From a virus (taxonomy: Duplodnaviria > Caudoviricetes), in the IMG/VR virus record IMGVR_UViG_3300031853_000006, positions 32,001 to 96,000 of that record: a stretch of 64,000 bases of DNA. One strand, written 5' to 3'. The notes under the pieces are model-generated. The model had not been told where the DNA came from. It did no database searches and saw only the letters and a program-made list of their open reading frames with translations. Below are positions 9,218 to 52,450 of this stretch, one piece after another (the stretch's first letter is position 1; each line of letters begins with the position of its first letter). A program made the translations under genes and the position numbers.

Positions 9218-9634
9218 ATGAAAAGAGTAATCAGAGCATCAGCATACGACAACGCTACTATATTTGAAGACGAGAATTATATATTCAAAAAGGAGCATGG
9301 TATCGGCGTGAACGATACTCCGTATTACGGGTTAGCTGTAAAAGCGAAAAACGGATCGCCAGCAGATAAGCACGTAGTACAAGTCAGACTCAACAGCGAT
9401 TTTCCTAGGTATGAGGGAGCCCCTGTAGGAATTACTTATCAGGGTGCATATGTGGCTCACGGAATGCGAAGCTCAACAGATACGTGGGATGACACACAAG
9501 AATACATCGAAGTACTTCAAGATTCGCTTGATTTCGCAAAGAAAGTAACACAGTGGATCAAACATAACGGCTACGACAAAGTTAATCCGGATGTCGAGCC
9601 TGACTATGATGACGATTACGATCTTGATGAGTAA
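9218..9634 (+). CDS. Putative internal virion protein (MKRVIRAS leader)
   Basis: First 8 aa identical to ORF 41882. Confidence 0.55.
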   Translation: MKRVIRASAYDNATIFEDENYIFKKEHGIGVNDTPYYGLAVKAKNGSPADKHVVQVRLNSDFPRYEGAPVGITYQGAYVAHGMRSSTDTWDDTQEYIEVLQDSLDFAKKVTQWIKHNGYDKVNPDVEPDYDDDYDLDE

Positions 9635-16533: not shown

Positions 16534-18141
16534 ATGGAGTTTGCAAAGACTTTTTGCAAACCTGGAGCGTGCATAGCAGTAACGCCCGTAGGTTTGCAGA
16601 CAGTTCTGCAGTATAACGAAAACGGCTTGCTGCAGAAAGTACTGATCGGGTTCGGATCAGATCTCGACAATGATCGAGGTACTTACACGATCACAGATGA
16701 GGGAACTTACAAAAAGCTGTTTGAGTCTATCAGAGGTCGTGTGCCTGTGAAGATTTCGACAACCGGAGGAACCACTTGGATCTACGGAGTTATGTATTCC
16801 GATAGAATTCCGAGCGACGACGGAGTCCTTCCTGATTCGCTCTTCAAAAGCTACATTGATGACATCGTCAAGGGTGAATCATATTCGTTCTATGCAGGGT
16901 ACATTCACAGTCTTGCAGCAGCATTCCAAGGACCTGTAGTGATCCGAAATTACTTGAGTATGGCAGGATTCAACGATCTTCCTCAGGTACTTGTCCCAGT
17001 TACGCTTACTGATAACACAATCGAGGGAGCATTACATTCTACTAAGACTCCGTTTAACAAGAATTTCATAGCAGGATTCTTTGTCTTTGAAGATATGAAA
17101 TGCAGATATGCCCCTCTCGGGTTGAAGCAGATCACTGTAACTAAAGATCCCGAAATTGAGATTGGTCCTGATGGGTGCTGGAAAGGTACAGTAGTCGGAG
17201 CTAACGAATCTATTGTATTCAATTATTCAGCTATTAAGCATCATCAGGTAGGCAAGGGAGCTACGCTACTGTTGCAGCAGATCAATGAACATCATCATGA
17301 CATCATTTCAACTCGAGTTGGATCTGATGCAGAACTAGTTAAGCTCGGAGTAGGCGCTGAAGTAAAATGCCCTGTATGCGGAAAGGTATGCAGAGTAGGA
17401 GCAGACGACGCTGCATATCGATGTGACGATCCTCACTGCGTATCACATATGTATACAGATACACAGAAGATGCTTAAAGCGTTGAAACTTGCGGAATTGT
17501 CTTTTGAAGAGTATAAGAAAGCAGTTGACCAGAAAGACATACAATGCCTAACAGATGTGTTAGCACTGCCTCAGTATAAAGATGAAAAGATCCAAGTTAC
17601 ATTGGCTTCAGCACTTTACGCTGTGATTCCATTTACACCTTTTGAGCTTCTTGAAAAGTTTGCAAATAAGTGCAACAACAAGGTAGAAACAGTTGTATAT
17701 TATATCGAAAATCCGTTAAGGATTGAAACAGATTTAGACATCACAGAAGTAGCGGTAGCTAGATTAGTTAAGTGGTTAGAGGATCCGTATAATATCACAA
17801 CACTTACGACTATTTTCGACATTGTTGAAATCGAGGAGAAGGAACAGAAGTTTGATGGCGCTCCCATCTTCCGAGGTAACAAGATTGCAATAACTGGAAG
17901 GTTCAAAAGAGGAGACCTTCCCGAAATTGAAGCAATTCTCAGAAGCTACTCTGCGGAAGTTACTACATCGATCAATGTAGGAGATGATCTTCCAGATGTA
18001 GTTGTAACTGGCGGAACCGCTGAAGGTATTTCTGGTCAGGTTATTCAGAAAGCTAAAGTTCATGGCATTCCGATCTACGAAGAGGACGATTTTTTCATCC
18101 GCTACGAAATAGATCAAGACCTGGCGAGCAACCTTCTATAG
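16534..18141 (+). CDS. Degenerate NAD-dependent DNA-ligase-like protein with Zn finger and BRCT
   Basis: LigA-like layout (CPVCG...CDDPHC; FRGNKIAITGRF BRCT) but the KxDG position reads VTPVG. Confidence 0.7.
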   Translation: MEFAKTFCKPGACIAVTPVGLQTVLQYNENGLLQKVLIGFGSDLDNDRGTYTITDEGTYKKLFESIRGRVPVKISTTGGTTWIYGVMYSDRIPSDDGVLPDSLFKSYIDDIVKGESYSFYAGYIHSLAAAFQGPVVIRNYLSMAGFNDLPQVLVPVTLTDNTIEGALHSTKTPFNKNFIAGFFVFEDMKCRYAPLGLKQITVTKDPEIEIGPDGCWKGTVVGANESIVFNYSAIKHHQVGKGATLLLQQINEHHHDIISTRVGSDAELVKLGVGAEVKCPVCGKVCRVGADDAAYRCDDPHCVSHMYTDTQKMLKALKLAELSFEEYKKAVDQKDIQCLTDVLALPQYKDEKIQVTLASALYAVIPFTPFELLEKFANKCNNKVETVVYYIENPLRIETDLDITEVAVARLVKWLEDPYNITTLTTIFDIVEIEEKEQKFDGAPIFRGNKIAITGRFKRGDLPEIEAILRSYSAEVTTSINVGDDLPDVVVTGGTAEGISGQVIQKAKVHGIPIYEEDDFFIRYEIDQDLASNLL

Positions 18142-18161: not shown

Positions 18162-19667
18162 ATGGCGACATGGTTAGATAAAATACTACGACGCTCCGAA
18201 AGGGCTCAGAGAGAAGCAGGTCCGATAACCTCGATGCTTCGACAGATAGTCGGAGGGTCATTCTACAAGGTATCAGCTCTCAAGGGTGATTCAAGCGTCA
18301 ATACAATCAGAACGCAGATTGATACAATGAGAGCTCTTGCTCAAGATTCGCAGATAGCAACAGCTTTATCATATTATGCGACAGATGCAACCACACTCAA
18401 TTCTTCTGGTCAGATCATCTGGGCAACTGCAACTGAGTCAGGTTATCAAGAAATCGCAGATATAGTCAACACAAAGTTTACTGAATGGAAGATCAACACA
18501 TATGCACGTGATCACATTCTGGAACTTGCGACGATAGGTAACTTGTACCTTCCGACTACTAAGCTGTATCGAGAGCAGGGTGAACACGTACAAGGGAAAG
18601 AGCTAGTTTCCTTAGATAGTAATACTGTCCGTAATGACTTGTATGAAATTATTACCTCTACAAAGATTCCTCCAGAAGACGTCGTCCACTTATGGTACAA
18701 GGGTAAGCCGCAAGGTTACGCAATCCAGGAGAATTCAGATAGCGGAGAGGCGGTTAGGTATGACGAGAATGCTGTTATACATTTCACATTAGGTGGACTG
18801 TTAGGCGATTATACGCTTCCGGGTCGTAACGCAGATGGCGAGGACATAGATTTCGACATTCAGTTCGGACAGCCGCTCATGGCTGCTGCAACACAGCCCA
18901 CACAGACACTTAACTTGCTCGAAGATGCACTTGTCCTTTCGTCCCTCACTCGAATAGTCAGATTCATCAATGTAGAATGTGGAAATTCTGAGGAGGAAGA
19001 AATACAAGCGACCCTGCAGCAGATAAAAGATATGATAGAGCAGCAGCTTTCTATCAATACGTCGACAGGCGATGCACAGAGCTTCGTCAATCCGCAGAGT
19101 CCAAATAACTTAATTTACTTGCCTAAGATCAACGGACAAGATGCAATTTCAGTATTAGATATGAATATGGCAGAGGCAACCGACGCTGACAACAAGCTGC
19201 TTGACTACTATCAGGACAAGAAGCTGTCTGTGCTAGGTGTGCCGAAAGAAGCCATGAACTTCTCATCTGCAGAGGGACTCGGAGGTGCCGGAGCAGTTAT
19301 GTCACAGAGATCTGCTCTTTATGGAAACTCATTACAGCGTATCGAAACAGCCTACATGGAGGGTTGGAAGAACGCAATGAACATGTATTTTGTAGAGCAT
19401 GGGTTTAGCGGATACCAAGATAAGTTCGTACTTCACATGAATCCGATTATCACTCAGCTCAGTACCGTCAATTCAGAGAGACGCGATAGCACGCTTGGTC
19501 AGGCTTCGACAATGACGGAATTGCTCAAATCCTTAGGAGTATCTGATGAGGCACCGTATAGGAAAGCCCTCACCGAGATCCTATCCGAAGTGTTCCCTGA
19601 AACGGGTTCAGATGCTAATACATGGAACATTCAAGTAGAGTCAGGAGGTGAGGAAGGTGAGTTCTAA
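18162..19667 (+). CDS. Portal protein (T4 gp20-like)
   Basis: LLEDALVLSSLTR and KLSVLGVPK motifs; position after TerL. Confidence 0.8.
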   Translation: MATWLDKILRRSERAQREAGPITSMLRQIVGGSFYKVSALKGDSSVNTIRTQIDTMRALAQDSQIATALSYYATDATTLNSSGQIIWATATESGYQEIADIVNTKFTEWKINTYARDHILELATIGNLYLPTTKLYREQGEHVQGKELVSLDSNTVRNDLYEIITSTKIPPEDVVHLWYKGKPQGYAIQENSDSGEAVRYDENAVIHFTLGGLLGDYTLPGRNADGEDIDFDIQFGQPLMAAATQPTQTLNLLEDALVLSSLTRIVRFINVECGNSEEEEIQATLQQIKDMIEQQLSINTSTGDAQSFVNPQSPNNLIYLPKINGQDAISVLDMNMAEATDADNKLLDYYQDKKLSVLGVPKEAMNFSSAEGLGGAGAVMSQRSALYGNSLQRIETAYMEGWKNAMNMYFVEHGFSGYQDKFVLHMNPIITQLSTVNSERRDSTLGQASTMTELLKSLGVSDEAPYRKALTEILSEVFPETGSDANTWNIQVESGGEEGEF

Positions 19668-19668
19668 T

Positions 19669-20082
19669 ATGAAATCTTCAAAAGAGTTAGTTAACATCTT
19701 CTTCAGAGACCTCAAGCGTTATAATCAAACAAACTTCAAAACGATTGAGAAAGCAGATCTCAGTAAGCAAGATGCAACAGTTCATAAAGCATTTAGCTCT
19801 GTAGTAACTAGGTACTTCATATTCAAAGAGAAACATCCGGAAGTTTCAGAAGTGGAACACAGGATGCTCTATTTCAAGCTAAAGCTCGACATGGTAGCAA
19901 GCTATTTCTCAGAGTATCCAGACACATCAACTGATAACTTGGTTGCATTTCAGCTTGAACTCAAGAAGTACATCAAGGAGAGCAAGCATAATCCGGATGA
20001 AGGAGAAGAGATAAAAGATGGACAAGAAACTGCACTATCAGATATCCAGTTGGGATCAGATAACGGAATGCCTGTCGAATAA
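19669..20082 (+). CDS. Hypothetical protein in the head module
   Basis: AAGGTGAG RBS before MKSSK. Confidence 0.55.
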   Translation: MKSSKELVNIFFRDLKRYNQTNFKTIEKADLSKQDATVHKAFSSVVTRYFIFKEKHPEVSEVEHRMLYFKLKLDMVASYFSEYPDTSTDNLVAFQLELKKYIKESKHNPDEGEEIKDGQETALSDIQLGSDNGMPVE

Positions 20083-20752
20083 TAGCAGGAACCTCTATCT
20101 GAATCTGATTAAACTAATGGACGGGCCTCACATCAAAGGTGAGGTCCTCCAAGTAAATCATGCTTCGTATGGCACATTGTTTGCAGCAATGATCATGGGG
20201 CATGGTGAGCTAGTTACAGAGTTTGACGAGGATGGCAACGCAATTCCTTTCCTCTCAACAGATGAAATTCTCAAACAGATTGAAAAATTCGGCTTCTATG
20301 TTATCTACGATGTTAAGAGTAATCTACCGATGAATGTAATCACATTCCTTCAGGAACTATACGAATTCGGATATGACAAGATTACACGTATTGTAGTAAG
20401 CACAAAGAGCAAAGAGTCAGGATCTCTTATATGGAGACCTCAAGTCATTGCAATCAAGTCACAGTTTAATTCTGATTTACTTTCATACGGTGCAAAGATC
20501 ACTGAGAAAGTATTCAAGAACAAGTTAGCTGATAACACTATCATGAATCTATCTTACGAAGCAGATATGAAGTGGGACTGGCTGACCTATATCGCTAACA
20601 TAGCTGACTTGCTTGAAGAGAACATAGATCCACGAGATGATATTGCAGAGTTGCACTCATTAGATCCGTTTGATCCGATTCATAACGAGGGCTTGACTCC
20701 GTACACAGACCCAGAAGAACCTGACGAAGAATCTCAAGAGGAGGGCAACTGA
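20018..20752 (+). CDS. Hypothetical structural-module protein
   Basis: ORF track; operon context. Confidence 0.6.
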   Translation: MDKKLHYQISSWDQITECLSNNSRNLYLNLIKLMDGPHIKGEVLQVNHASYGTLFAAMIMGHGELVTEFDEDGNAIPFLSTDEILKQIEKFGFYVIYDVKSNLPMNVITFLQELYEFGYDKITRIVVSTKSKESGSLIWRPQVIAIKSQFNSDLLSYGAKITEKVFKNKLADNTIMNLSYEADMKWDWLTYIANIADLLEENIDPRDDIAELHSLDPFDPIHNEGLTPYTDPEEPDEESQEEGN

Positions 20753-21303
20753 TGTCGTTGAATAATCTGATAGGCCCAGATATAAAACTGATGAGAGCAC
20801 GCTATGATGAAGCGTTACAGCTTCAGGGCATACCAGTTACTTATCAATATCCTAATTTACCTGATACTAACGCTCAAAGCGAATCGGTAGTAGACGCTTA
20901 TTCAGAGCCGATTGAAACTAGCATATTCTTTGAAGGTAATCCTAAAGTAAGGACATTCAAAAGGCTCGGATGGGTAGTTGAAAACGCACAGGACTTACCT
21001 GCCCTAATACATTGTAGTTTCAACTTACCGCATGTACAGCGTGACAGTATCTTCAGGATCGCAGGGCAGTATTCCGAATTACCTGATAGGATATTCCGAG
21101 TAACTGAAATAACATATGATGCACAAAGTCCTGATCACTTGGTGTGCCAGATTGTTCCCATAAACGGAACAGAAGAACAGATAGTAGGCCGTACAAAAGT
21201 AGAAGTAAAGAAAACATTCAATACTTCAAACCATTTCTTGAAGTCCGAACTAGATTACAGAGGTAATCAGCATATGACTGTAGAAGAAACAGAGGAGAGA
21301 TAA
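20752..21303 (+). CDS. Putative neck/head-closure protein
   Basis: EALQLQGIPV.Y pattern and position, T4 gp14-like. Confidence 0.5.
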   Translation: MSLNNLIGPDIKLMRARYDEALQLQGIPVTYQYPNLPDTNAQSESVVDAYSEPIETSIFFEGNPKVRTFKRLGWVVENAQDLPALIHCSFNLPHVQRDSIFRIAGQYSELPDRIFRVTEITYDAQSPDHLVCQIVPINGTEEQIVGRTKVEVKKTFNTSNHFLKSELDYRGNQHMTVEETEER

Positions 21304-24312: not shown

Positions 24313-26568
24313 ATGCCTAAAGCAATCAATCTAACTAGCACACAAGTAGAAGAACTGAAACAGCTAATTGCAGACGGCACTACACAGCAAAACGCTTGCA
24401 AACATTTTGGAATCTCCGAAAGTAAGTTAGCAGCTATTTGCAAAGAGAATAACATTGAACGCAAGTGGGTTAGAGAATATACTTGTGTTCTGTGCGGAAA
24501 GGTCTTCAAGGCATCTCATAAATCTGCTATATGTCCTGAATGCAAAGCTACTCCGAATGTGTGTGTAATCTGCGGAAAAGCATTCCCAAAGAAGTATTTC
24601 CCTTACAATCAAAAGACGTGTTCCGCTAAATGTCGAGGAGCATACAGAGCTCAATCCGGCACCGCAAAAGCAGGAGCACAGAAAATGAAAGAAACTAAAA
24701 TGGAGCGCTACGGCACGCTAGATCCTGCGGAAGTAACTAAGAAGAAAAAGGGAGGAGAACTTGATCCCAAGATCTGCCCATTGTGTGGAAAAGAATTTGT
24801 ACCGGATACTCCTAGACAAGTCTACTGCAAAGATGTTCATTATGTTCCCTGTCCGGTCTGTGGCAAGATGACAGAACTCAAAGATATTTCTATAGGCCCT
24901 CAGGCTTGCTCAGAAGGATGTAGAATGGCAAGGATCAATCAAACTTGCCTAGAGCGATACGGGAATAAGGACGCAGTCAATTCGGAGCACGCGAAGAAAC
25001 TGGGAAAGCAAACATCGCTTAGAAAGTATGGCAAAGAATATTACATGCAGACTGATAAAGCGAAGCAGCATTACAAAGATGTTATCCAAGAGAGATATGG
25101 AGTCACAGCTCCTATAGCATATCCAGAATTCAAGGAGAAGGCTAAGCGGACTAATCTGGAGAAGTATGGAACAGAGTATGCTTCACAGTCTGAAGAGATA
25201 AAAGAAAAGGTTAGACAGACTAATCAAGAGCTCTATGGTGGGGCAGGCTTCGCTTCGCCTATATTACGCAAGCGCATAACAGAAACAAACAAAGAGCGGT
25301 ATGGAGTAGAATTTCCAGTGAGCAGCCCAGAAATCCGACAGAAGATATCTCAGTCCCTTCGTGATAATTATGGAGTAGATAACTTCTGGAAAACCAAAGA
25401 AGACTTAGCAAGACGGATCAAAGATCCAAGAAAGATTGACGATTACTACGCATTTAAGCAAGATCCTAGAGGGTATGTAGAAAGCCATTACGAAGATAAA
25501 CCTCCAATCTATGTACTAGCAGATGATCTGGGAGTCACAGATACGCCCATTTATGATATACTCATCAACGCGAAATGTCAAGATGTAATAGATAGAACTA
25601 AACAGTCTAGCATGGAGTATGAAATCGAGCACTTATTGCGAAAGCTGGTGCCCGATGCAGAGATATGGGTCAATTGTAGACGAGTTCTTCCTGAAAATAA
25701 AGAGATTGATTTCTACTTGCCAGAATACAAATTCGGCATTGAATGTAATCCAACTATCACGCATAATTCTACAGTGTCTGCATGGAACCCTGGAGTAGAT
25801 CCCGCGCTGCCCGTCAGTTATCATAAACAGAAATCAGAACAAGCCATGCAGGTAGGCGTGTTCCTATTTCATATATTTGGATATGAATGGACAAACAAAC
25901 GAGCCATAATAGAATCAATGATTGCAAATATCTTAGGCAAAAATACAAATAAGGTCTATGCGAGGAATACACAGATAATACAAGTAGACGCGCCGACGGC
26001 TAAGAAGTTTCTAGACGATAATCACCGCCAAGGAGGGACTAACGCACCTATCAGATTAGGGCTCAAAGATAAGATTACTAACGAATTAGTGAGCCTCATG
26101 ACCTTTGGAAAAACACGTCCTAGTATCGGAAAGGAGCAAGATGCATTAGATACAGATTACGAATTGATACGATTCTGCAACAAATTGGGTACATCTGTAG
26201 TCGGAGGAGCGTCGAAGTTATTTAAGCATTTCTTATCAGAATATGCCCCAACAAAAGTGATATCATTTTCTGACATAGCACATACTAAAGGAGGACTGTA
26301 CCGGACACTAGGGTTCAAGGATGTAAGTCATTCTGATCCCGGATATGTATGGGTGAAACATTACACTGACGAATACCGAAACCGTGTATCCTGCCAGAAG
26401 GCGAACCTTCTAAAAATGTTTGACGATGTGACAGAAGAGGATATTGAAACAAAGTCAGAACGAAAAATCATGATAGACCACAAATACGTACAGGTTTACG
26501 ATAGCGGAGTCATACGATGGGAGTATACTCCAGTATCGTTAAATAGTGCAGAAGATGGAGGTGAATGA
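24313..26568 (+). CDS. Free-standing homing-endonuclease-like protein 1 (HTH, Zn ribbons, T.LERYG repeats, PD-(D/E)xK/Vsr-like nuclease, GNAT/Mom-like C-terminus)
   Basis: CxxC clusters, EIDFYLPEYKFGIECNPT.TH, NHRQG...YELIRFC...GGASKL...YDSG. Confidence 0.75.
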   Translation: MPKAINLTSTQVEELKQLIADGTTQQNACKHFGISESKLAAICKENNIERKWVREYTCVLCGKVFKASHKSAICPECKATPNVCVICGKAFPKKYFPYNQKTCSAKCRGAYRAQSGTAKAGAQKMKETKMERYGTLDPAEVTKKKKGGELDPKICPLCGKEFVPDTPRQVYCKDVHYVPCPVCGKMTELKDISIGPQACSEGCRMARINQTCLERYGNKDAVNSEHAKKLGKQTSLRKYGKEYYMQTDKAKQHYKDVIQERYGVTAPIAYPEFKEKAKRTNLEKYGTEYASQSEEIKEKVRQTNQELYGGAGFASPILRKRITETNKERYGVEFPVSSPEIRQKISQSLRDNYGVDNFWKTKEDLARRIKDPRKIDDYYAFKQDPRGYVESHYEDKPPIYVLADDLGVTDTPIYDILINAKCQDVIDRTKQSSMEYEIEHLLRKLVPDAEIWVNCRRVLPENKEIDFYLPEYKFGIECNPTITHNSTVSAWNPGVDPALPVSYHKQKSEQAMQVGVFLFHIFGYEWTNKRAIIESMIANILGKNTNKVYARNTQIIQVDAPTAKKFLDDNHRQGGTNAPIRLGLKDKITNELVSLMTFGKTRPSIGKEQDALDTDYELIRFCNKLGTSVVGGASKLFKHFLSEYAPTKVISFSDIAHTKGGLYRTLGFKDVSHSDPGYVWVKHYTDEYRNRVSCQKANLLKMFDDVTEEDIETKSERKIMIDHKYVQVYDSGVIRWEYTPVSLNSAEDGGE

Positions 26569-26569
26569 C

Positions 26570-28582
26570 ATGGCAACTTACACCTGCAAACGGTGCGGAA
26601 AACAGTTTGACCTAAGAGGTTTCAGCAAGTATTGCAAAGAATGTCGTGATTACTACACACCTTGCGTTATTTGCGGAACTCCAGTGCACCAGACGAATCC
26701 GGAAAATGAAGCTAAAACATGTTCAAGAAAGTGTGCAGGGCTGTATAGAAAACAATCTGGAATAAGTAAAGCTACTGCGGAGAAATCGATAGCGACTAAG
26801 AATAAGAAGTACGGCAACGGGTCAGGGGCTAAGTACAAGCCGAGGAAGTGTAAGCTCTGCGGAAAAGAGTTTATCCCAAATGGTTCAAAACAAGTTTACT
26901 GCAAGAATCCACATTACGGTCCGTGCCCTGTTTGCGGTAAGCAAACACTTATAAGGGAATTAAGCAAAGGACCGAACGCTTGTTCAGAAGAGTGTAGAAT
27001 AGCTCTTATTACTAAGTTAGCGAGAGAGCGCGATAATACCGAGTCGCTGAAGAAGAACCGGCAGACTTGCTTAGAAAGGTACGGAGTTGAATATTATTCC
27101 CAGACTAAAGAGTGGCGTGACAAAGTAGCCGAAACGTCAATGGAACATTACGGAACTACTTGCCCGCTAGCTAGCCCCGAAATTCATGAACAACTTGTTA
27201 AAACTAATATAGAGAAATATGGCTATGCTAATCCTGCGCAAGCTCCTGAAATAATTGAAAAGATTTCAAAGACTTTAGAAGAGCGTCATGGAGGTTGCGG
27301 AATGGCATCTGACGCAACACGTGAAAAGATATATGCAACTAACAAAGAACGCTACGGAGATATCCACCCTGCAAGGACTTTACAATGTAAGGAGAAGGGG
27401 AAGCAAACATCGTTGGCTCGTTACGGATACGAAAGCTATGCAAGTACTAAGGAAAGCATTGCACGTAGTATGCTAGATCCTAGCAAAATTGATGACTTCT
27501 GGAGCTTTCGCGCAGATCCTGAAACGTATGTAACATCTCATTACAAAGTGAAACCATATGCAGATGAATTAGCTGCCGATCTAGGATTCAATGAAACATC
27601 TGTATATGACATATTGATCAACTTCAACTGCAAAGATGTAATCAATCGTAGCAAAACTTCTATTATAGAAAGAGAGATGTACGAGTTCCTGACTACATTA
27701 GTCCCCGAATCTGAAATCAGAAAATGTGACAAACGGACAATCACCCCACTAGAATTAGATTTCTATCTGCCGAACTATAATTTTGCAATTGAATGCAATC
27801 CAACATATACTCACAATTCCTCATTCAAGTCCTTCGGAGAGGGTGAGCCTAAAACAACAGTGTACCACAGAAACAAAACAGATAAAGCAGAAGAAGCTGG
27901 GATATTTCTGATGCATGTTTTCGGGTATGATTGGCTTTATAAACAGGACATCATTAAATCGATGATACGCAACGCCTTAGGAAAATGTGATACTACAATT
28001 TACGCCCGGAATACAGAAGTAAAAGAGCTAGATGCAAAAACTACTCGTGAGTTTCTCAACACTAATCACAGACAAGGTGATGCATCATCTCCTATCAGAT
28101 TAGGTCTAATAGATAAGCAGACGAAAGAGCTTGTTTCAGTAATGACGTTTAGCAAACCTCGTACAACTATCGGAAGTAGTGCAGATGATCCTGAAGGATC
28201 TTATGAGCTTGTCAGATTCTGTAGTTTGCTAAATACTTCTGTAGTAGGAGGGGCTTCAAAACTATTCAAGTGGTTTAGTAGTAACTATAATCCTACAAAG
28301 ATAATATCATTCTCAGATAGAGCGCATACTCGAGGAAACTTATACAGCTCCTTAGGTTTTCACGAAGTTCGAAGATCTGATCCCGGTTACGCATGGGTCA
28401 ACGTATACACAGAAGACTACAAGAGCCGTGTAGCCTGCCAAAAACACAAACTCCCTCAGCTATTTGACGACGTAACTGAAGAAGATATGAGCAATAAGTC
28501 AGAACGAATCATAATGATGGAACATAATTACGCGCAAGTTTATGACAGCGGGACAATACGATGGGAGCTAGAACCCCGTTGA
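26570..28582 (+). CDS. Free-standing homing-endonuclease-like protein 2 (paralogue)
   Basis: Same architecture; GGAGGTG RBS before MATYTCK. Confidence 0.75.
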   Translation: MATYTCKRCGKQFDLRGFSKYCKECRDYYTPCVICGTPVHQTNPENEAKTCSRKCAGLYRKQSGISKATAEKSIATKNKKYGNGSGAKYKPRKCKLCGKEFIPNGSKQVYCKNPHYGPCPVCGKQTLIRELSKGPNACSEECRIALITKLARERDNTESLKKNRQTCLERYGVEYYSQTKEWRDKVAETSMEHYGTTCPLASPEIHEQLVKTNIEKYGYANPAQAPEIIEKISKTLEERHGGCGMASDATREKIYATNKERYGDIHPARTLQCKEKGKQTSLARYGYESYASTKESIARSMLDPSKIDDFWSFRADPETYVTSHYKVKPYADELAADLGFNETSVYDILINFNCKDVINRSKTSIIEREMYEFLTTLVPESEIRKCDKRTITPLELDFYLPNYNFAIECNPTYTHNSSFKSFGEGEPKTTVYHRNKTDKAEEAGIFLMHVFGYDWLYKQDIIKSMIRNALGKCDTTIYARNTEVKELDAKTTREFLNTNHRQGDASSPIRLGLIDKQTKELVSVMTFSKPRTTIGSSADDPEGSYELVRFCSLLNTSVVGGASKLFKWFSSNYNPTKIISFSDRAHTRGNLYSSLGFHEVRRSDPGYAWVNVYTEDYKSRVACQKHKLPQLFDDVTEEDMSNKSERIIMMEHNYAQVYDSGTIRWELEPR

Positions 28583-41423: not shown

Positions 41424-41488
41424 TGAACCTTCTATACTATTCGATGAAATAACTAATTATATTCCTATTTTCAAAGGAGAGTTAGAAC

Positions 41489-41881
41489 ATGAAAAAGAAA
41501 GTTGTAATCACGTCATCTAAACATCAGAAGAATCTTGAGAACTACCGCAAAAAGTATGTTCGTGCCGCTGAGGGCGACCTGGATGATTTTGACATGGATG
41601 ATGCAGACGTAGATGGTGTTCTAGATGCAATAGATGATGTTGCAGATAACGTAGACGATCTCCAGGATGCTATCGACAGCATTGACGAAGATGATCTAGA
41701 CATTGCGATGAATAACAATATTGCAAATCACTACATCGCAGAATGTGGCAAATGCTACGGAGTGTTTATCTCTGCAGTAGTTGAGTCTGATCAGAAGATC
41801 GAATACGTTTCAGGACAGTGCCCTATCTGCCATAAAGATACTGAACAGTATCTGAAATGGGTCATAAAGGAGGTGGACTAA
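41489..41881 (+). CDS. Acidic Zn-ribbon protein with basic leader (VITSS, VRAA)
   Basis: CxxC pairs; AACCTT motif at 41426. Confidence 0.6.
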   Translation: MKKKVVITSSKHQKNLENYRKKYVRAAEGDLDDFDMDDADVDGVLDAIDDVADNVDDLQDAIDSIDEDDLDIAMNNNIANHYIAECGKCYGVFISAVVESDQKIEYVSGQCPICHKDTEQYLKWVIKEVD

Positions 41882-42277
41882 ATGAAACGAGTTATCAGAG
41901 CTTCTGAATCAACTGCAGATACTAACCCATCTGAATGGGAAGATGTTAAGTGGAAAATAGATTATAAAGGCATTGGCAATCGGTATATGTTTAAGGGCAA
42001 GGCCAATAACGATCGTGGTATCTTTATTGGAGATGTAGTTAAGCTAGCAGCTTATGACGACGCCGATTACTACTGGGCTCGAGTTAGAGGTAGCGGATTA
42101 GTAGAATTCATTCACAATGGTCGTGTTCAGGATAAGATGCAACTTCCTAATTATCTTGATTTTGCAGAGGATTATGAGACTGTTGCTGAGTATTTCGAAG
42201 TAGAGGTAATGGATCCAATCCTGGATGTGCTTGTTGATTACAATAAGAGCATCAAGCCTCGCATGATGTATGACTGA
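41882..42277 (+). CDS. Putative internal virion protein (MKRVIRAS leader)
   Basis: Leader identical to ORF 9218. Confidence 0.55.
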   Translation: MKRVIRASESTADTNPSEWEDVKWKIDYKGIGNRYMFKGKANNDRGIFIGDVVKLAAYDDADYYWARVRGSGLVEFIHNGRVQDKMQLPNYLDFAEDYETVAEYFEVEVMDPILDVLVDYNKSIKPRMMYD

Positions 42278-42294
42278 GAAAGGAGAAGTCAGCA

Positions 42295-44331
42295 ATGAAG
42301 ATTACGCGAAGAAAGATCACCGCTGCTACTAGAGTAGCCGAAGTTCCTGCGCCTTTCAACAAGTATTATAGGCTGATGTCAGATGCTGAATTTGAAGATG
42401 AATTTGATGTACCCGCTCACCCGTCACCCTGCGAAGAGCAAAAAGGTTATGATGTTGAATTCATTTCATACATTACAGCGAAGCCTAATGTAGCTGGAGT
42501 TTTAGAAGACGAAGGCCTAGACGTGCTGGAATTGATAAAAGAAGGCGGGAGAATTTTTCCAGCATACACAGTACATGATCGTATCATTCCGCTTTCAGAG
42601 TCAGAACTTCCTGAATTGTACGATTGGGATGACGACGAATATGTAGAATCTACTACAGAAGTTGAAAGCGCTGTAGATACTGGATTAACTTACTGGTATT
42701 ACAGCCGTCATGGTATGGGTCCGGGAACAATACCAACTAATGTAACGGTCTTGGATACAGTAGAAGAAGGATGGAAGACCTGGATGCTACTCGATAAGAT
42801 GCTCACAACAGAAGAGCTTGATTTCTACGATCTCAAAGAGGAACAGCCGCCGGAAGGATCTGTAACTCATAACGGTGACACAATCGAGGGATATGACGAA
42901 GTAACTGCTTCGAGTTGCGAGAAGGTTAGCGAAACAGACGATACAATAAGCTATGTTGTTACATCTTCTCAAGCAGAAGGAGATGTAGAAGCAACAAGCC
43001 TTGTTAACTACAAGGGGTACAAGATACTCCCGGATCGACATGCGTTCTGCTGGAATGTCCTTGACAAAGATGCTTCGCTCATAGAAACAGGTTTCCAGAA
43101 CGAGCGTGCAGCAAAAGAATACATTGACGTCAATCTGTCAACTGAAGCAGATGGTGAAAGCATTACAGCTGCAATAGACGTTGACAGTATCGACTTAGAT
43201 GCACTCAAGCGTGAGATTGAAGAAGCAATCGTAGAATACTTTAAGAGTCCGGAAGCCGGATGGTCAGAAGATGAAGCTGAACAGGCTGCAAGAGACTACT
43301 CCGTTGTAGAGGTAGAAAAATACGACGACAATTCCATCAAAGTAGAAGTAAGAACCGATCTTTCATTTGACAGCATGATGAATCTTTCGCAGTTGCTTGA
43401 TCCGATTGTTGAACAGTACGACGAAGATGCATATTTCGATATGGAAGATGCAGGCATCATGAATGCCTTCTTAACTAACGAGGTTGATACCTCTACCGAA
43501 ATAGAAGCTGCCCATAGCGATTTTCAGAGTGATCGGTCAGCAGCACTTGATAGACATAACGAGCGCATGATAGGTCAATACGACAGATACCATGGCGAGC
43601 CTGGCGAGGGCAAAGAAATACCTGAACCGGATCCAATCTATTCTGAGTTCGACTTCAACTATTTAGTATCTGTAGACTCTGAGGGTAACGTGATACACTT
43701 AGACGATGACGCCCTCATGCATGCATCACTGCTCGATGAGGAAGGTGTTTCAGAAGAATCAATGCTCGAAAGTTTCGATGAATTGATGCTATGGTACATT
43801 CCGGATAGGCCAGGTAACTATCGAGTAAAGGGTCACATCAAGATGGTGTATGCTCCTGAATGGAACAGCTTCGATGTTGATTATGACTACGATCTCGATC
43901 CAGAAGCAACTGCTGTAACAGATGTTCAAGTAACTAACGCCGGAAACCGAGTAGAGTCTTCAATTGCATCAGAAGGTACTGCAGTAGAAGCTGCAATGAC
44001 GGAGGACGAACTCGACAATGCGATCTTAGAAGGCAAACCATTCAGTCTTCAAGACTTCAAGAAATACAAGTCTTTCGACACTGATGAATACGTAATGCCA
44101 GAAGACCTGAAAGTCGGAGACATTATCGTCAACGACGCAACAGCAGATCAGATGGAGTGGGGCACACGTTACGAAGTAATCAGCATCAACGATCCGGCAG
44201 ACACAATGTTCGATTACACGGTACGCGTTAGGCTCCTGACGGATCCGAGAGTCAAGGGCAAGAAAGAAGGCGATATCATGACGCTTTACTTCTACCAAGA
44301 CGATCCTGTAGGCAGTTACTACGAAGGTTGA
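42295..44331 (+). CDS. Acidic multidomain protein (candidate polyprotein, includes a DarA_C-like segment)
   Basis: Repeated [VI]x[AS][AST] linkers; YWYYSRHG..PGTIP...LTTEEL..YDL segment. Confidence 0.6.
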   Translation: MKITRRKITAATRVAEVPAPFNKYYRLMSDAEFEDEFDVPAHPSPCEEQKGYDVEFISYITAKPNVAGVLEDEGLDVLELIKEGGRIFPAYTVHDRIIPLSESELPELYDWDDDEYVESTTEVESAVDTGLTYWYYSRHGMGPGTIPTNVTVLDTVEEGWKTWMLLDKMLTTEELDFYDLKEEQPPEGSVTHNGDTIEGYDEVTASSCEKVSETDDTISYVVTSSQAEGDVEATSLVNYKGYKILPDRHAFCWNVLDKDASLIETGFQNERAAKEYIDVNLSTEADGESITAAIDVDSIDLDALKREIEEAIVEYFKSPEAGWSEDEAEQAARDYSVVEVEKYDDNSIKVEVRTDLSFDSMMNLSQLLDPIVEQYDEDAYFDMEDAGIMNAFLTNEVDTSTEIEAAHSDFQSDRSAALDRHNERMIGQYDRYHGEPGEGKEIPEPDPIYSEFDFNYLVSVDSEGNVIHLDDDALMHASLLDEEGVSEESMLESFDELMLWYIPDRPGNYRVKGHIKMVYAPEWNSFDVDYDYDLDPEATAVTDVQVTNAGNRVESSIASEGTAVEAAMTEDELDNAILEGKPFSLQDFKKYKSFDTDEYVMPEDLKVGDIIVNDATADQMEWGTRYEVISINDPADTMFDYTVRVRLLTDPRVKGKKEGDIMTLYFYQDDPVGSYYEG

Positions 44332-44508: not shown

Positions 44509-45495
44509 TTACTCGACTTCATTGGTGTATTCGTATTCATCTAAATAATCCGTCGTGATATAATCATACCTCTTTTTCATCTCAATCACGTTGTCTCTTG
44601 AATTGACTTTCCGCAACCCCTCTTCCAATCTCCAATATACGTCATACATGCCCTCTTTCACAAGTTTCACAGACAGCGACTTAAGAAGTTCTGGACTAGC
44701 TAATGACCTCGGGACTACACATTTGAAAGAATCAATTCCAATTGTATTCAAAGCCTCGCCCATCAACTTAGAATAATAATTTGGATTCATATAGTTGCCT
44801 CTCGTGCCGAAGTCCGCAAGATAAATAACACCTTGCTTCCGTTCAAACCGCAAAACTTGATATAATATCCCATCATCGACTAATCCAACAGAAGTATGAA
44901 TCTTCCCGAATTTAGGACAAACACGTTGCCCATATCGCTTCAAAAACTCAACACTCGCCCTTTCTTTCAATACGTAGACCTGCATGTGTTCTTCTTCAAT
45001 TCTAAATAAAGGGCCATCTGGGTTCGGCAAAGTCTTGAGAGGGAATTCAGTCAGTATCGTCTGTGTGAACTTATCCTTAATTGTAGTTGATAAACTTTCA
45101 GATTTCTTGAGTTTCTTTATATTGTCTACTCCATACTTACGCTGTAAGGTTTCAACTCCTTTCCGATAGATTTCAGGAGATTGCATCGCGTAGTCAACTC
45201 CGAATTTCTTTTGCATTGTCGCTTTTGCTTTCTCTCTTGCTTCTGGATTATTACCAGGGGCCTTCATTCCATATTTCTTCATACTAGTTTCCTGCGTACG
45301 CTTAACTCTGCAAGCATACGAACACGCAACCGGAGGCCGCTTCAAGTTATCATCATTAGTAACTAAGTATCTCTTACCACAAACAGGACAGTTCATATAG
45401 TGAGGTTCCTTACAGTATTTTTGAGAAGCTGTTTTAGGTATGAAAGGCTTTCCGCAGAATTCACAAATCTTCTCCTTTTTGAAATCATCTTCCAT
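44509..45495 (-). CDS. Degenerate homing-endonuclease-family protein 3 (Zn ribbons and KYG repeats, no clear nuclease motif)
   Basis: CEFCGK.F.P....QKYC...H...CPVCG as in paralogues; own TTGACT-17-TATAAT promoter at 45558-45586 (-). Confidence 0.65.
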   Translation of the reverse strand: MEDDFKKEKICEFCGKPFIPKTASQKYCKEPHYMNCPVCGKRYLVTNDDNLKRPPVACSYACRVKRTQETSMKKYGMKAPGNNPEAREKAKATMQKKFGVDYAMQSPEIYRKGVETLQRKYGVDNIKKLKKSESLSTTIKDKFTQTILTEFPLKTLPNPDGPLFRIEEEHMQVYVLKERASVEFLKRYGQRVCPKFGKIHTSVGLVDDGILYQVLRFERKQGVIYLADFGTRGNYMNPNYYSKLMGEALNTIGIDSFKCVVPRSLASPELLKSLSVKLVKEGMYDVYWRLEEGLRKVNSRDNVIEMKKRYDYITTDYLDEYEYTNEVE

Positions 45496-45647
45496 GTGGT
45501 CACACTTCCTTTCCGGTTTTAGAGCCATGTGGTGCTGTCATGTGATTAGTTGTTTTCATTATAATATAGTTTAGTCGAAAAGTCAATATGTAATCTTAAA
45601 TATTTTCGTAACATCAACATAAATCAAACACCGAAAGGAGAAATCAT

Positions 45648-47078: not shown

Positions 47079-48740
47079 TTATCTTTTCCATTCAAAAACC
47101 ATCTGGCCGCAGTCATAAACGGATCGCCAACCGGATCTAATCATCAGTGCTTCATTAGAAGTACCTTTTCCGTAGTTTGTATGAAAAAGTTGATCAAAAC
47201 CTCGTTGACGCAATAAATTATCAGTTACGTATTCAACACCTCTTGACCAGACCTTTGCGGGACTTGATGTATGATGTAAGGACATACCAATCTTTTCATA
47301 TACTTCTCCATTGAATTTTGCTCTATCGCAATAACTGATGATAGATTCAGGATTTACTTCTTTCAAGAACTTTTGGAACATTTTAGAAGCTCCCCCTACG
47401 ACTTGATGCTTAGAGTCTGTACACAGTCGTAAAAGTTCCCATTCATAATTTTTATTATATCGAGGTTTGCCAAAAGTCATTACGCTCAGTAACTCACCTT
47501 GATAGAATAGTGCGTAGGCGTACTTAGCACCTCTCGCATCTCCTTGAATATGGTTACGTTGAATGAATTCAGTAACATCTTTAGGATCCACAGATTTAAC
47601 TTCACATCTCCTAGCATATATTTTTTCTTTTGGCAACACTAAGTTAAGAACTTTTTCTCTTTCATCCCAATCAAATACATGAATACATCTATAGCCATTG
47701 TCCTGTGCTAACCTTGATCTCTCAATGTGATACCTAGGATCTTTTCCTACAGACTCCCAGTGGTTAGGCAGGTCTGAATGAGTATAGGACGGATCAATCT
47801 CAACTACTATATTAGTTCCAAGCACTCGCATATCAAACCATTTACCATCAATATATTCTTCTTCCTTCACTTTAACTCCATTACTTTCCAAGAATTCCAT
47901 GAATTCTTGATTGACCTTTGATGACCTACCTGTTCTGTTTTCTAGCATAGCTTGTCGTGCCTTTTCTTGACTTTCAGGAAGTTGCAAAGTGCATTTTACT
48001 CCATATCTTTCTTCGCAAGTCTGCATTGCTTTCTCTCGTGATTCGGGTATCATTCCAGAATAAGGGACGCCATGGTTAGCCATAAGTGTTTCCATCATAG
48101 CAATCTGAACGATTTCGCTCTGTGCCGGATAATTCGTTCCATATTTTTCACGACACGTATCAATGTGCTTTTGTCGTACTTCTTTGCTCTTTTGTACTTC
48201 ACTCATCTTCTTGCGTAGTTCAGGAGATTCATCCGGATTAGTAACTCCGTACCGTTCCATCATAGTTGCTTCTATTTTCTGCCGGAGCACTGGAGAAGCA
48301 GTACCGATACCTCCGTACTTGGATTCTAGAGTTGCTCTTGCCTTCTTATTGGTCTCAGGAATCTTGGCCTTGATCTTCTCAACAGCCTTGTCGTGAAACT
48401 CCTTGACTTGACTCGGATTGCGTACTCCGTATTTCGCTTCTAATGTATCCTGTGCTTTCTGTATTTTTAATTTAGATTCGCACTCTTTGGAACATGTGTA
48501 ACGGACAGCACCGTATTTCTCACTCGGCACTTTCATAGCTATGGGTCTTCCGCAGACTAAGCAATCCAGATAATGAGTGCGTTTGCAATAGCGCTGTCTG
48601 CTCCCGTTACGTCCTTCTCCTACAAACAACTTCTTACAAAGCGGACACTCTTTGACTTTCGGAGTATCTTTAGTAACTCCAGAATAGTTATAATCATCAG
48701 CAGAATATACTTTTTGCATAATTTCTTCGTGAGATAGCAT
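47079..48740 (-). CDS. Free-standing homing-endonuclease-like protein 4 (nuclease plus GNAT/Mom-like)
   Basis: FDMRV...VEIDPSYTH; NHIQG...WELLRLC...GGASK...YDCG. Confidence 0.75.
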   Translation of the reverse strand: MLSHEEIMQKVYSADDYNYSGVTKDTPKVKECPLCKKLFVGEGRNGSRQRYCKRTHYLDCLVCGRPIAMKVPSEKYGAVRYTCSKECESKLKIQKAQDTLEAKYGVRNPSQVKEFHDKAVEKIKAKIPETNKKARATLESKYGGIGTASPVLRQKIEATMMERYGVTNPDESPELRKKMSEVQKSKEVRQKHIDTCREKYGTNYPAQSEIVQIAMMETLMANHGVPYSGMIPESREKAMQTCEERYGVKCTLQLPESQEKARQAMLENRTGRSSKVNQEFMEFLESNGVKVKEEEYIDGKWFDMRVLGTNIVVEIDPSYTHSDLPNHWESVGKDPRYHIERSRLAQDNGYRCIHVFDWDEREKVLNLVLPKEKIYARRCEVKSVDPKDVTEFIQRNHIQGDARGAKYAYALFYQGELLSVMTFGKPRYNKNYEWELLRLCTDSKHQVVGGASKMFQKFLKEVNPESIISYCDRAKFNGEVYEKIGMSLHHTSSPAKVWSRGVEYVTDNLLRQRGFDQLFHTNYGKGTSNEALMIRSGWRSVYDCGQMVFEWKR

Positions 48741-48872
48741 GCTTTGCACCAATCCTTTCTGATAATTATATAACGATTTTAGTATGGTTGACCTAATTAC
48801 GCGGTACACCTTACATCTATACGAACCTTCAATAAGTATACAAAATACCTAACTAAAGGAGGATCAGTACGC

Positions 48873-51503: not shown

Positions 51504-51902
51504 ATGAAAAGGGTCATATACGCAACTGCAACATACAGCACAAACAGCGAAGTCAAGGACTGTGCGAAATATGTACGCGACCTTATCAAGCAAACTAAAA
51601 CTCCATTTACAGTGACGCTGGTAGATCCGTATTCGGACAAGAAGATGAATCAGAGAGTTAAACTCAATGCGCAAGTTTCGCAAAAGGGCAAGAATAACTA
51701 CTTCGTGAACGTCGAATACAATATGATGATCGACGAAGCCGATGAGGAAGAAAGCAATGACTTTCTGAATAACACAATAGATGACGTCATTGATGCAGCA
51801 ATCGACAAGTATCCGATGCTTTCTATCGGTAGCAAGACAATATCCATCGGCGGATATCGTGGTCGAGTAGTTACTGGAATAACTGTCCGATCAGAGGGGT
51901 GA
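51504..51902 (+). CDS. Putative internal virion protein (MKRVIYAT leader)
   Basis: AACCTT motif at 51450. Confidence 0.55.
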   Translation: MKRVIYATATYSTNSEVKDCAKYVRDLIKQTKTPFTVTLVDPYSDKKMNQRVKLNAQVSQKGKNNYFVNVEYNMMIDEADEEESNDFLNNTIDDVIDAAIDKYPMLSIGSKTISIGGYRGRVVTGITVRSEG

Positions 51903-51908
51903 AACATA

Positions 51909-52112
51909 ATGAAAAGATGGATCCATGCAAAATCCACGATAATAGACGCAGCGTCAAACATAGGGACCTATAGGGGCGTGTCTTATGGAATGGAAGATTC
52001 AGGCGATCAGCTTTATTACTTTGTAAAACGCAACGGTGAAGTAGAGTACGCTGAACTAGAAGACGAACTCTTCACACTAATAGATGAATACATCGAAAGG
52101 GGATACAAATGA
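51909..52112 (+). CDS. Small protein (MKRWIHAK...IDAAS leader)
   Basis: Shared leader. Confidence 0.55.
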   Translation: MKRWIHAKSTIIDAASNIGTYRGVSYGMEDSGDQLYYFVKRNGEVEYAELEDELFTLIDEYIERGYK

Positions 52113-52450
52113 AACGATACATCCACTCATCACACGACTCAGAGAAAACATTCAAATACGAGATCTGGCAGATCAGTCACACACGTGAAGTTGATTACGC
52201 ATTCATGAGATGGAGTTATGCAGAGGATAATGGTTTCGACTTTGATGATTACAGCTTCGTTTACGAAGGAGAAATCGAAGAGAGCTCGGTAGAATGGGCA
52301 TTGGAGAAACTTTTCACGAAGTTCAATTTACATCATCCGGCAGACTTCAGAGGTCATTCACTTAGTGTCAGCGATATAATCAAGCTAGACAACAAGTTCT
52401 ACTACTGTGATTCCTTCGGGTTTGAAGATATCACAGATGTAATCCGATAA
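52109..52450 (+). CDS. YodL-domain protein (MKRYIHSS leader)
   Basis: YEIWQ...Y..VYEG...LEKLF..FN..HPADFRGHSLSVSDII...YYCDSFGF. Confidence 0.8.
   Translation: MKRYIHSSHDSEKTFKYEIWQISHTREVDYAFMRWSYAEDNGFDFDDYSFVYEGEIEESSVEWALEKLFTKFNLHHPADFRGHSLSVSDIIKLDNKFYYCDSFGFEDITDVIR

Follow-up and report, generated by a model that had tools for sequence, protein, structure and literature searches.

The subject of this analysis is a 64,000-nucleotide stretch of the tailed-phage record IMGVR_UViG_3300031853_000006 (hereafter the window; bases 32001-96000 of a 116,896-bp IMG/VR record, called G000 below, with a CheckV completeness of 78%), and in it a plus-strand gene at 42295..44331, stop codon included, that encodes a 678-amino-acid (aa), 76.8-kDa protein. 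We think it probable that this protein is a cargo polyprotein in a T4-like capsid-targeting and propeptide system, with predicted cleavage after a small residue rather than after glutamate. There is good comparative support for reading the short motif [VI]x[AS][AST], which recurs along the protein, as a cleavage site, and packaging in the head followed by injection into the host is suggested by analogy with better-known phages. The protein, which begins MKITRRKITAAT, is strongly acidic (157 Asp and Glu residues versus 52 Lys and Arg; isoelectric point, pI, 4.07). Coordinates below are those of the window unless a record is named, and a slash within a motif marks a predicted cut.

Motif-bearing linkers between shuffled modules

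The motif matches the 678-aa protein 10 times. Shuffled versions of the sequence contain 2.4 +/- 1.5 matches, none of 5000 shuffles reaches 10, and five control patterns, in which the residue classes were rearranged or one of them was replaced, match the protein one to three times each. The ten copies start at residues 8 (ITAA), 117 (VEST), 123 (VESA), 203 (VTAS), 222 (VTSS), 231 (VEAT), 290 (ITAA), 403 (IEAA), 553 (VESS), and 564 (VEAA), and every one of these tetrapeptides, like the start of the open reading frame (ORF), had been correctly listed in a preliminary description of this DNA. An AlphaFold2 model built from a 50-sequence alignment has a mean predicted local distance difference test score (pLDDT) of 83.7, with seven segments of at least four residues below 50: residues 8-11 in the leader, 113-122 in the first linker, 202-208, 222-236, 285-292, 398-411, and 552-566 around the last linker. 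All ten motifs lie within or directly abut these predicted disordered linkers, and none is inside a confidently folded domain, which disposes of the concern, raised in the preliminary description itself, that the motifs might fall inside folded domains.

A pattern this short could be a coincidence of flexible linkers rich in Ala, Ser, Thr, and Val, combined with gene starts descended from one duplicated ancestor. The linkers are indeed compositionally biased, and chance matches do occur in tail fibres rich in Ala, Ser, and Thr, as well as in the mature capsid protein. The shuffles and control patterns, however, already disfavour such an explanation, the position of the motif is kept across relatives at 30-45% identity, and the proteins that share the leader discussed below have unrelated bodies and encode that leader with synonymously varying codons. 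We regard coincidence as very improbable.

Relatives of the protein were abundant, with 26 found by a word-indexed search and 726 by an exhaustive HMMER search at E<=0.001; 160 proteins were retrieved. Dissection with BLAST and jackhmmer divided the 678-aa protein into six modules, M1 (residues ~12-112), M2 (127-200), M3 (235-283), M4 (294-400), M5 (407-550), and M6 (568-678), besides a hairpin peptide of about 20 residues. Each module has also been seen on its own in a protein of 90-150 aa, as tandem copies, or in another arrangement (M4-M2, M2-M1, M6-M2), and a methyltransferase domain lies between M3 and M4 in part of the relatives. Many small domains are shuffled within a single polypeptide in this family, the six or seven modules varying in order and copy number among the 160 relatives.

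Read from its N terminus, with all features on the plus strand, the protein opens with a leader of ten residues, MKITRRKITA/A (42295..42324), predicted to be cut after A10. Among the 160 proteins, 47 start with a MKIT..KITA[AS] variant of this leader and 34 with a sequence of the MKRxIxA type. The first module, M1 (residues 11-119, 42325..42651; 12.4 kDa, pI 4.06), has an alpha/beta fold and is nearly always the first module in relatives as well, where it is at times repeated two or three times. Linker 1 (residues 113-126, 42631..42672), with the tandem sites VES/T and VES/A, leads to the putative DarA_C-like module M2 (residues 126-205, 42670..42909), which has the conserved string DTGLxYWYxxRHGxGPGTIP...LTTEEL and is followed by the site VTA/S at 203-206. 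The next segment, residues 206-233 (42910..42993), holds the conserved beta-hairpin peptide CxKVxExDDxIxYVV[ST]S, flanked on both sides by motif sites, with VTS/S at 222 and VEA/T at 231; this peptide might serve for docking or might itself be released. The same hairpin peptide also forms the end of P0056, a short relative that consists of M1 only.

The second half of the protein is built in the same manner. M3 (residues 234-292, 42994..43170) is a small beta/alpha module of 6.6 kDa that ends in ITA/A (290), and M4 (residues 293-405, 43171..43509) is a ferredoxin-like alpha/beta module of 12.9 kDa that ends in IEA/A (403) and is also seen as a stand-alone protein of about 105 aa. M5 (residues 406-555, 43510..43959; 17.2 kDa) consists of a helix and then a beta-rich core. 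Linker 6 (residues 556-566, 43960..43992), between the sites VES/S (553) and VEA/A (564), separates it from M6 (residues 567-678, 43993..44328; 12.9 kDa), in which helices are followed by an SH3/KOW-like barrel and which also occurs as a stand-alone protein. In the family, a typical linker reads [VI]-E-S-S-T-x-[VI]-x-A-A and then comes a module, with [VI]ESSTx[VI]xAA/MTEE as the usual form before M6. In the retrieved proteins, a motif occurs no more than 16 residues upstream of M1 in 39 of 47 cases, of M2 in 71 of 102, of M4 in 72 of 110, and of M6 in 37 of 41, against a chance level of about 11% of random 16-residue windows.

The preliminary description had likened the YWYYSRHG..PGTIP segment of M2 to the C-terminal domain of DarA. 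In the relatives this likeness has sub-threshold support: PF18789 (DarA_C) matches 20 of the 32 M2-bearing relatives at E<=1, the best at 5.5e-5 and 24 bits, under the 27-bit cut-off. For the window's own protein, DarA_C gave no hit at E<=0.1. A DarA_C cluster is also a structural neighbour in the ESM Atlas, with a template modelling (TM) score of 0.53 over 57 residues, a value that says little at such short length. Together these matches lend weak but consistent support to M2 as a divergent DarA_C domain.

Other searches of sequence and structure returned little. LPD18 was detected in one relative at 23.4 bits, below its cut-off of 26.8; this sub-threshold hit aside, no module other than M2 matched the polyvalent-protein domains catalogued in Pfam. 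Pfam and PHROGs gave nothing meaningful for the 678-aa protein, and Foldseek gave no match in the PDB at E<=0.001. Against BFVD, the sole strong Foldseek matches resemble gut-virome homologues, one of them annotated as a NodS methyltransferase. The VIA wide search placed M4 among ferredoxin-like folds at Z 6-7 and matched M6 to domain I of EF-P at Z 7.7, both generic; beyond generic folds at Z<8 it found nothing, and M1, M2, M3, and M5 were hardly covered. No informative structural match emerged for M1, M3, or M5 with Foldseek, nor for M5 in the ESM Atlas, where its TM scores were below 0.4. Pfam and fold searches detected no peptidase domain within the 678-aa protein or its close relatives.

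A shared leader and its counterpart in head proteins

The motif that separates the modules also ends a short leader found throughout the genome. In G000, 22 genes start with M-K-[RK]-[WVYLF]-[IVL]-x-[AS]-[SAT], all on the plus strand and all with GGAGG-type ribosome-binding sites; away from ORF starts, 26,998 residues contain a single match. Once their first 10 residues are removed, 24 proteins (the 22 tagged ones and two other ORFs of the locus that contains the 678-aa gene) fall into 22 unrelated clusters. The codons of the leader vary synonymously, with AGA, CGA, CGG, and AGG for Arg, ATA, ATT, and ATC for Ile, and both AGT and TCN for Ser, and therefore selection acts on the peptide. A relative, the 134.5-kb IMG/VR record G001 (89% complete), has at least 15 leaders of the MKRVIKAS type and no internal matches to them. 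One short leader is thus carried by several unrelated proteins in both G000 and G001. Pfam assigned neither a family nor a function to any of ten leader-tagged proteins.

Leaders and linkers are interchangeable. Stand-alone or first modules have a leader where internal modules have a linker, as in MKRYIKA-MTEE (P0089), MIHAS-VDTG (P0041), MKRYLRKITAAS (P0108), and MKITHRKITAS (many proteins). Set side by side, MKRYIKA/MTEE in P0089 corresponds to ..VEAA/MTEE in polyproteins, and MIHAS/VDTG in P0041 to ..VESA/VDTG; on these alignments, the [VI]-x-small-small core is the element conserved in leader and linker contexts alike. In both pairs (I-K-A/M-TEE versus V-E-A/A-MTEE, and I-H-A/S-VDTG versus V-E-S/A-VDTG), the module starts after the third motif position, which suggests a site with Val or Ile at position P3, any residue at P2, and Ala, Ser, or Gly at P1, followed by the cut. 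The cleavage site of T4, [L/I]-x-E/, has the same P3/P2/P1 register. Sites of the herpesvirus assemblin protease, YLQA-T and VQA-S, share it as well (PMC4498786).

Three other accounts of the motif were considered and set aside. The junction motifs are not relics of gene fusion, as the internal sites have no MKR part and lie within acidic linkers. Cleavage by the host protease Prp, which processes ribosomal protein L27, was rejected because P2 is variable and polar here; the Prp site is LQFFA/S, with aromatic residues at P2 and P3. A Sec signal peptide cut by signal peptidase I was rejected for want of a hydrophobic core region, though V-x-A fits the -3/-1 rule.

If the motif is a recognition site of a head protease, it should recur in the head proteins themselves, and the preliminary description had proposed looking for it in the propeptides of the capsid and scaffold. 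G000 is a myovirus record in which terminase, portal, and tail sheath genes were found. It stops at a 482-aa baseplate-region protein, and in G001 the head cluster lies about 10 kb downstream of the homologue of that protein. The two records have 40 ORFs in common at about 46% identity. The head cluster of G001 comprises a 70-aa leader-type protein, a 119-aa acidic protein, a 458-aa protease-scaffold, and a 465-aa capsid protein. The protease-scaffold gene is at G001 114682-116058, and roughly the first 150 residues of its product make up the protease domain. The protease-scaffold belongs to phrog_207 (E 6e-24), tblastn aligns its N-terminal part with cyanophage gp21, and PF03420 (Peptidase_S77) is present in most of the 120 homologues listed for it; on these matches, the G001 protease is assigned to the T4 gp21 family. 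The capsid protein matches PF07068 (Gp23) at E 3.8e-17. An S77 protease and a gp23-family capsid protein are accordingly both encoded in G001, and neither was found in the 78%-complete G000. These relatives give the comparison with T4- and phiKZ-type head processing, made in the preliminary description, a concrete basis. Sequence searches of the PDB with two candidate head ORFs of G000 gave nothing, and a portal-based search for complete relatives returned only contigs of 11.5-16.7 kb.

The motif is present at conserved positions in both head proteins, in the syntenic relative and in its homologues. In an alignment of 120 capsid homologues, roughly the first 65 residues are variable and basic and close with [VI]-x-[AG]-A, directly before the near-invariant TNTSNIMARPDFLEL...; the boundary sequence [VI]-x-[AG]-A-TNTSNIMARPDF between propeptide and core is present in 30 of 30 printed sequences and in the consensus of the 120. 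We take the position of this boundary to be comparable to that in T4 gp23, which loses its first 65 residues. Two more conserved motif sites, RTIxAG-T and V-x-[AS]-[AS], lie within the capsid propeptide. In the protease-scaffold, EIAAS stands directly after the protease domain in all 120 homologues, R[VI]xAA also occurs in 120 of 120, [VI]TASTSV in 101, and KVCA[ST] in 100. The leader therefore ends in the motif of the maturation sites, these sites being deduced from conservation in relatives of G000.

It is conceivable that the leader is instead an address or regulatory tag that is never cleaved, acting as a docking strand for a chaperone or other partner or as an N-terminal degradation signal. 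The 678-aa protein would then be one cytoplasmic multidomain protein, made early together with the replication genes. Such a role would suit the replication and repair genes around the locus and the dense small-gene arrays, resembling early-gene blocks, in which tagged genes are found, and N-termini of the Met-basic-hydrophobic kind resemble N-terminal recognition motifs of ClpX. An N-terminal signal, however, leaves unexplained why the [VI]x[AS][AST] core should stand without its MKR part in acidic linkers, and equally why the motif is invariant at the propeptide/core junction of the capsid protein and at the protease/scaffold junction. We consider an uncleaved tag distinctly unlikely.

The distribution of the motif along the protease-scaffold is also uneven. 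The coiled-coil, C-terminal scaffold part has 7.6 motifs per protein versus 2.0 expected, and the protease domain 0.1 per 100 aa; in G001 alone, the scaffold has 8 motifs versus 1.9 expected (P = 0.0002). Taken with the capsid sites, this is the distribution that a recognition site of the prohead protease would show. It also raises the question of whether the 678-aa protein is a head-protease substrate of another kind, a filler of the prohead core or scaffold like T4 gp22, gp67, and gp68. Its cleavage products would then leave the head or stay behind in it as inert peptides, and would not act as injected effectors. In favour of such a role, the scaffold has the highest density of the motif, the acidity of the 678-aa protein is high, no known activity has been tied to any of its modules by our searches, and the core proteins of T4 are degraded to peptides (PMC9958956). 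Against a filler speak the confident folding of the modules in the model and the 30-65% identity that they keep among relatives, the methyltransferase insert in part of these relatives, and the likeness of M2 to DarA_C. The shuffling and duplication of modules, and their occurrence alone with a leader of their own, are more in keeping with accessory proteins that diversify than with an essential scaffold, and the relative already encodes a dedicated protease-scaffold. We therefore hold a core filler to be unlikely and continue to favour a cargo polyprotein.

The 70-aa leader-type protein (MRKVIKPSSRKVTAS...) and the very acidic 119-aa protein of G001 are encoded just upstream of the protease-scaffold and capsid genes (G001 114081-114665; L015 14081-14662), a placement that we take to resemble the T4 gene order 67-68-21-22-23. 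At G000 19569-21240, upstream of the window, lie genes for proteins of 286 and 268 aa with a charged N-terminal sequence and leader-like starts (MKLQRVSASS..RRVIKAS and MKITASRRDD), whose G001 homologues adjoin a SNF2 helicase. The 286- and 268-aa proteins may be further core or scaffold-like substrates.

The locus and its gene neighbourhood

The 678-aa gene is the last of three same-strand ORFs that make up the locus (41489-41881, 130 aa; 41882-42277, 131 aa; 42295-44331, 678 aa). All three carry leaders: that of the middle ORF is canonical, and those of the outer two are longer basic variants with two motif copies (41489) and one (42295). The first product (41489..41881, plus strand) is acidic, with a pI of 4.27. 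Its basic N-terminal leader, MKKKVVITSS...YVRAA, has motif copies at residues 7 (ITSS) and 24 (VRAA) and is followed by an Asp-rich stretch and a zinc-ribbon-like CxxC...CxxC C-terminus. Homologues occupy the same position in G001 (2014-2361, 49% identity) and in a third related contig, L005 (4384-4809). The second ORF (41882..42277, plus strand) has the leader MKRVIRA/S and a GGAGG ribosome-binding site; its body showed no detectable relative among the other leader proteins and matched no Pfam or PHROG family. Both of these leaders read as the preliminary description had given them.

Genes for an NAD-dependent ligase, a RecU-type resolvase, and an HD phosphohydrolase lie 5' of the locus. The local order of RecU, HD, acidic zinc-ribbon protein, and module protein is alike in G001 and G000, and in L005 the order is ligase, RecU, HD, a 141-aa acidic zinc-ribbon protein whose leader has three motif copies, a 957-aa polyprotein with the methyltransferase insert, and a homing endonuclease. 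The G001 counterpart of the 678-aa gene encodes M1-M2 only, in 263 aa. Because the counterparts at the locus differ in this way in G001 and L005, the cargo set, as far as can be read from these three sequences, turns over quickly, and the tag and the sites stay constant. Scans for sigma-70 promoters and terminators were uninformative, finding fewer sites than in shuffled sequences, and the locus matched none of 50,697 phage records by blastn or tblastn.

Tagged genes also occur elsewhere in the window, all on the plus strand. One, at 9218..9634, encodes a 138-aa protein with the leader MKRVIRAS, and three are consecutive at 51504..52450, with leaders MKRVIYAT (132 aa), MKRWIHAK (67 aa), and MKRYIHSS (113 aa).

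We also observed several large homing-endonuclease-like genes with zinc-ribbon and DUF7487 domains, at 24313-28582 on the plus strand and at 44509-45528 and 47079-48809 on the minus strand, part of them with a Mom-like domain (phrog_3339, phrog_1384). One such gene is directly 3' of the polyprotein gene, and in G001 one is directly 3' of the capsid gene. Upstream of the terminase region, two tandem paralogous genes (10062-12211) encode proteins of 356 and 360 aa that both start ...S(V/L)(V/I)IPCYNDGRYK and are glycosyltransferase-like, a call that comes from their sequence alone. A 535-aa ORF at 16534-18141, with the terminase gene on one side and the portal gene on the other, is out of the ordinary for a region of head genes. 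Of a PHROG annotated as NAD-dependent ligase it matches the C-terminal part only, and it is weakly similar to a 92-residue DNA ligase fragment of solved structure (1l7b). Outside the window, at G000 1156-2157, is a gene similar to queuine tRNA-ribosyltransferase (phrog_887, E 1e-32) with a 56% identical homologue in G001, and this match suggests 7-deazaguanine modification of the phage DNA.

Predicted processing and comparison with known systems

In the mechanism that we propose, the leader, the first module, or both would draw the 678-aa protein into the assembling prohead core, where the gp21-family prohead protease would cut after the small residue at every site and release the modules as separate proteins of 3-17 kDa. 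Cleavage at the predicted sites would yield the leader of 10 residues and fragments of about 12.4, 9.1, 2.9, 6.6, 12.9, 17.2, and 12.9 kDa, all with a pI of about 4.1. The released modules would be retained in the head and reach the host together with the DNA, to act early as accessory proteins. We place the 678-aa protein inside the prohead because it is a predicted substrate of the head protease, by analogy with T4, in which gp21 is active only inside the finished prohead, where it strips IPI-III and Alt of their leaders and breaks down the core proteins (PMC9958956). An anti-defence role is our leading guess for the injected modules because M2 resembles DarA_C.

Several points weigh against a packaged and processed polyprotein. 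To our knowledge, the characterised relatives of the protease (T4 gp21, phiKZ gp175, and SPN3US gp245) all cut after Glu, and we know of no precedent in this protease family for a small residue at P1, which would be a new change of specificity. The capsid protein and the prohead protease were not found in G000 by searches with PHROGs, Pfam, PF05065, PF04586, PF03420, and PF00574, and both are known from the relative and from database homologues. The 678-aa gene is set amid replication and repair genes (ligase, RecU, HD hydrolase), away from the head genes. A motif as loose as this one arises by chance in Ala/Ser/Thr-rich proteins, and the mature capsid protein has 6 matches versus 2.6 expected. 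More than 20 tagged proteins would make a large cargo set, and Pfam, PHROGs, and fold searches tied no module to a known activity. Finally, every module is strongly acidic, which is unusual for a protein packed alongside DNA; the internal proteins of T4 are basic.

The proposed system resembles T4 capsid targeting (IPI, IPII, IPIII, and Alt, processed by gp21) in several respects. In both cases unrelated proteins have a short leader ending in the motif of capsid maturation (PMC9958956), a gp21-family protease is found together with a gp23-family capsid protein (here in the relative), and the register runs from a hydrophobic P3 through any P2 to P1 and the cut. The two systems differ in that P1 would be Ala, Ser, or Gly here and is Glu in T4, and in that the leader has 7-10 basic residues here and 10 residues in T4. 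The tagged set is also much larger, with at least 22 genes, and its cargo is acidic where that of T4 is basic. Whereas T4 cargo loses its leader only, the cargo here includes a polyprotein of several modules that has a site in every linker.

Jumbo phages offer a second comparison. In phiKZ (protease gp175) and SPN3US (protease gp245), numerous head proteins are processed at a short motif, [ASG]-x-E, frequently at several positions of one protein, and a large protein cargo is ejected (PMC10052503). Self-cleavage of the protease aside, the cuts identified in SPN3US remove N-terminal propeptides (PMC10052503). The cuts predicted here would, in contrast, part six or seven folded modules that also occur independently, and P1 differs.

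The architecture of the 678-aa protein resembles that of the polyvalent proteins described by Iyer et al. in 2017, among them DarA of phage P1, which are likewise strings of small, rapidly shuffled domains (PMC5512222). Polyvalent proteins are predicted to be transferred together with the DNA and to be divided into their units (PMC5512222), and P1 DarA is a processed head protein required for the anti-restriction system (PMC9024508; PMC5512222). Points of possible overlap include the putative DarA_C-like module and, in relatives, the methyltransferase insert and the single sub-threshold LPD18 hit. Unlike the polyvalent proteins, for which release of the units by an internal zincin-like or assemblin-like peptidase is predicted (PMC5512222), the family studied here showed no embedded peptidase, a domain that is common though not universal among polyvalent proteins. 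The head protease would act on the present family in trans, at a defined motif in the linkers. Most of its modules, moreover, match no catalogued domain.

The form of the predicted site is nearly identical to that of the R and M sites of herpesvirus assemblin, (V/L/Y)-x-A/S or T, for example YLQA-T and VQA-S. As in herpesviruses, the protease is fused to the scaffold with a conserved site at the junction, EIAA/S in 120 of 120 homologues here. The protease in the present case is of the T4-type S77 family and not S21, virus lineage and host are different, and a large cargo set is tagged here, whereas the herpesvirus site tags none such. By this set of analogies, what would set the system apart from those of T4 and phiKZ/SPN3US is an assemblin-like site used on a large tagged set and on a polyprotein processed in trans.

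For the phage clade as a whole, a broader scenario may be entertained, if only tentatively and at somewhat less than even confidence. In these gut and rumen phages, probably of Lachnospiraceae, a T4-type prohead protease may have changed in specificity, with a small residue in place of Glu and convergence on the [V/I]-x-A/S site of assemblin, and this site may serve as a universal tag. A 7-residue leader would then load the products of more than 10% of the phage's genes into the head, polyproteins would be cut in trans into injected effectors, and one tag would deliver a whole counter-defence kit.

Should the cargo reading prove correct, the capsid-targeting principle of T4 would extend to abundant uncultured gut phages of Gram-positive hosts, and an S77 head protease could have a specificity like that of assemblin. 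It would also supply the first concrete processing mechanism for a phage protein of the polyvalent type, cleavage in trans by the head protease. The tag might lend itself to the loading of foreign proteins into such phages, a use to which the capsid-targeting sequences of T4 and P1 have already been put (PMC9024508). A simple sequence rule, an MKRxIxA/S leader or a linker with [VI]x[AS]/[AST], would predict injected cargo straight from metagenomes, and the roughly 700 module-bearing proteins would form a pool of unannotated candidate counter-defence domains.

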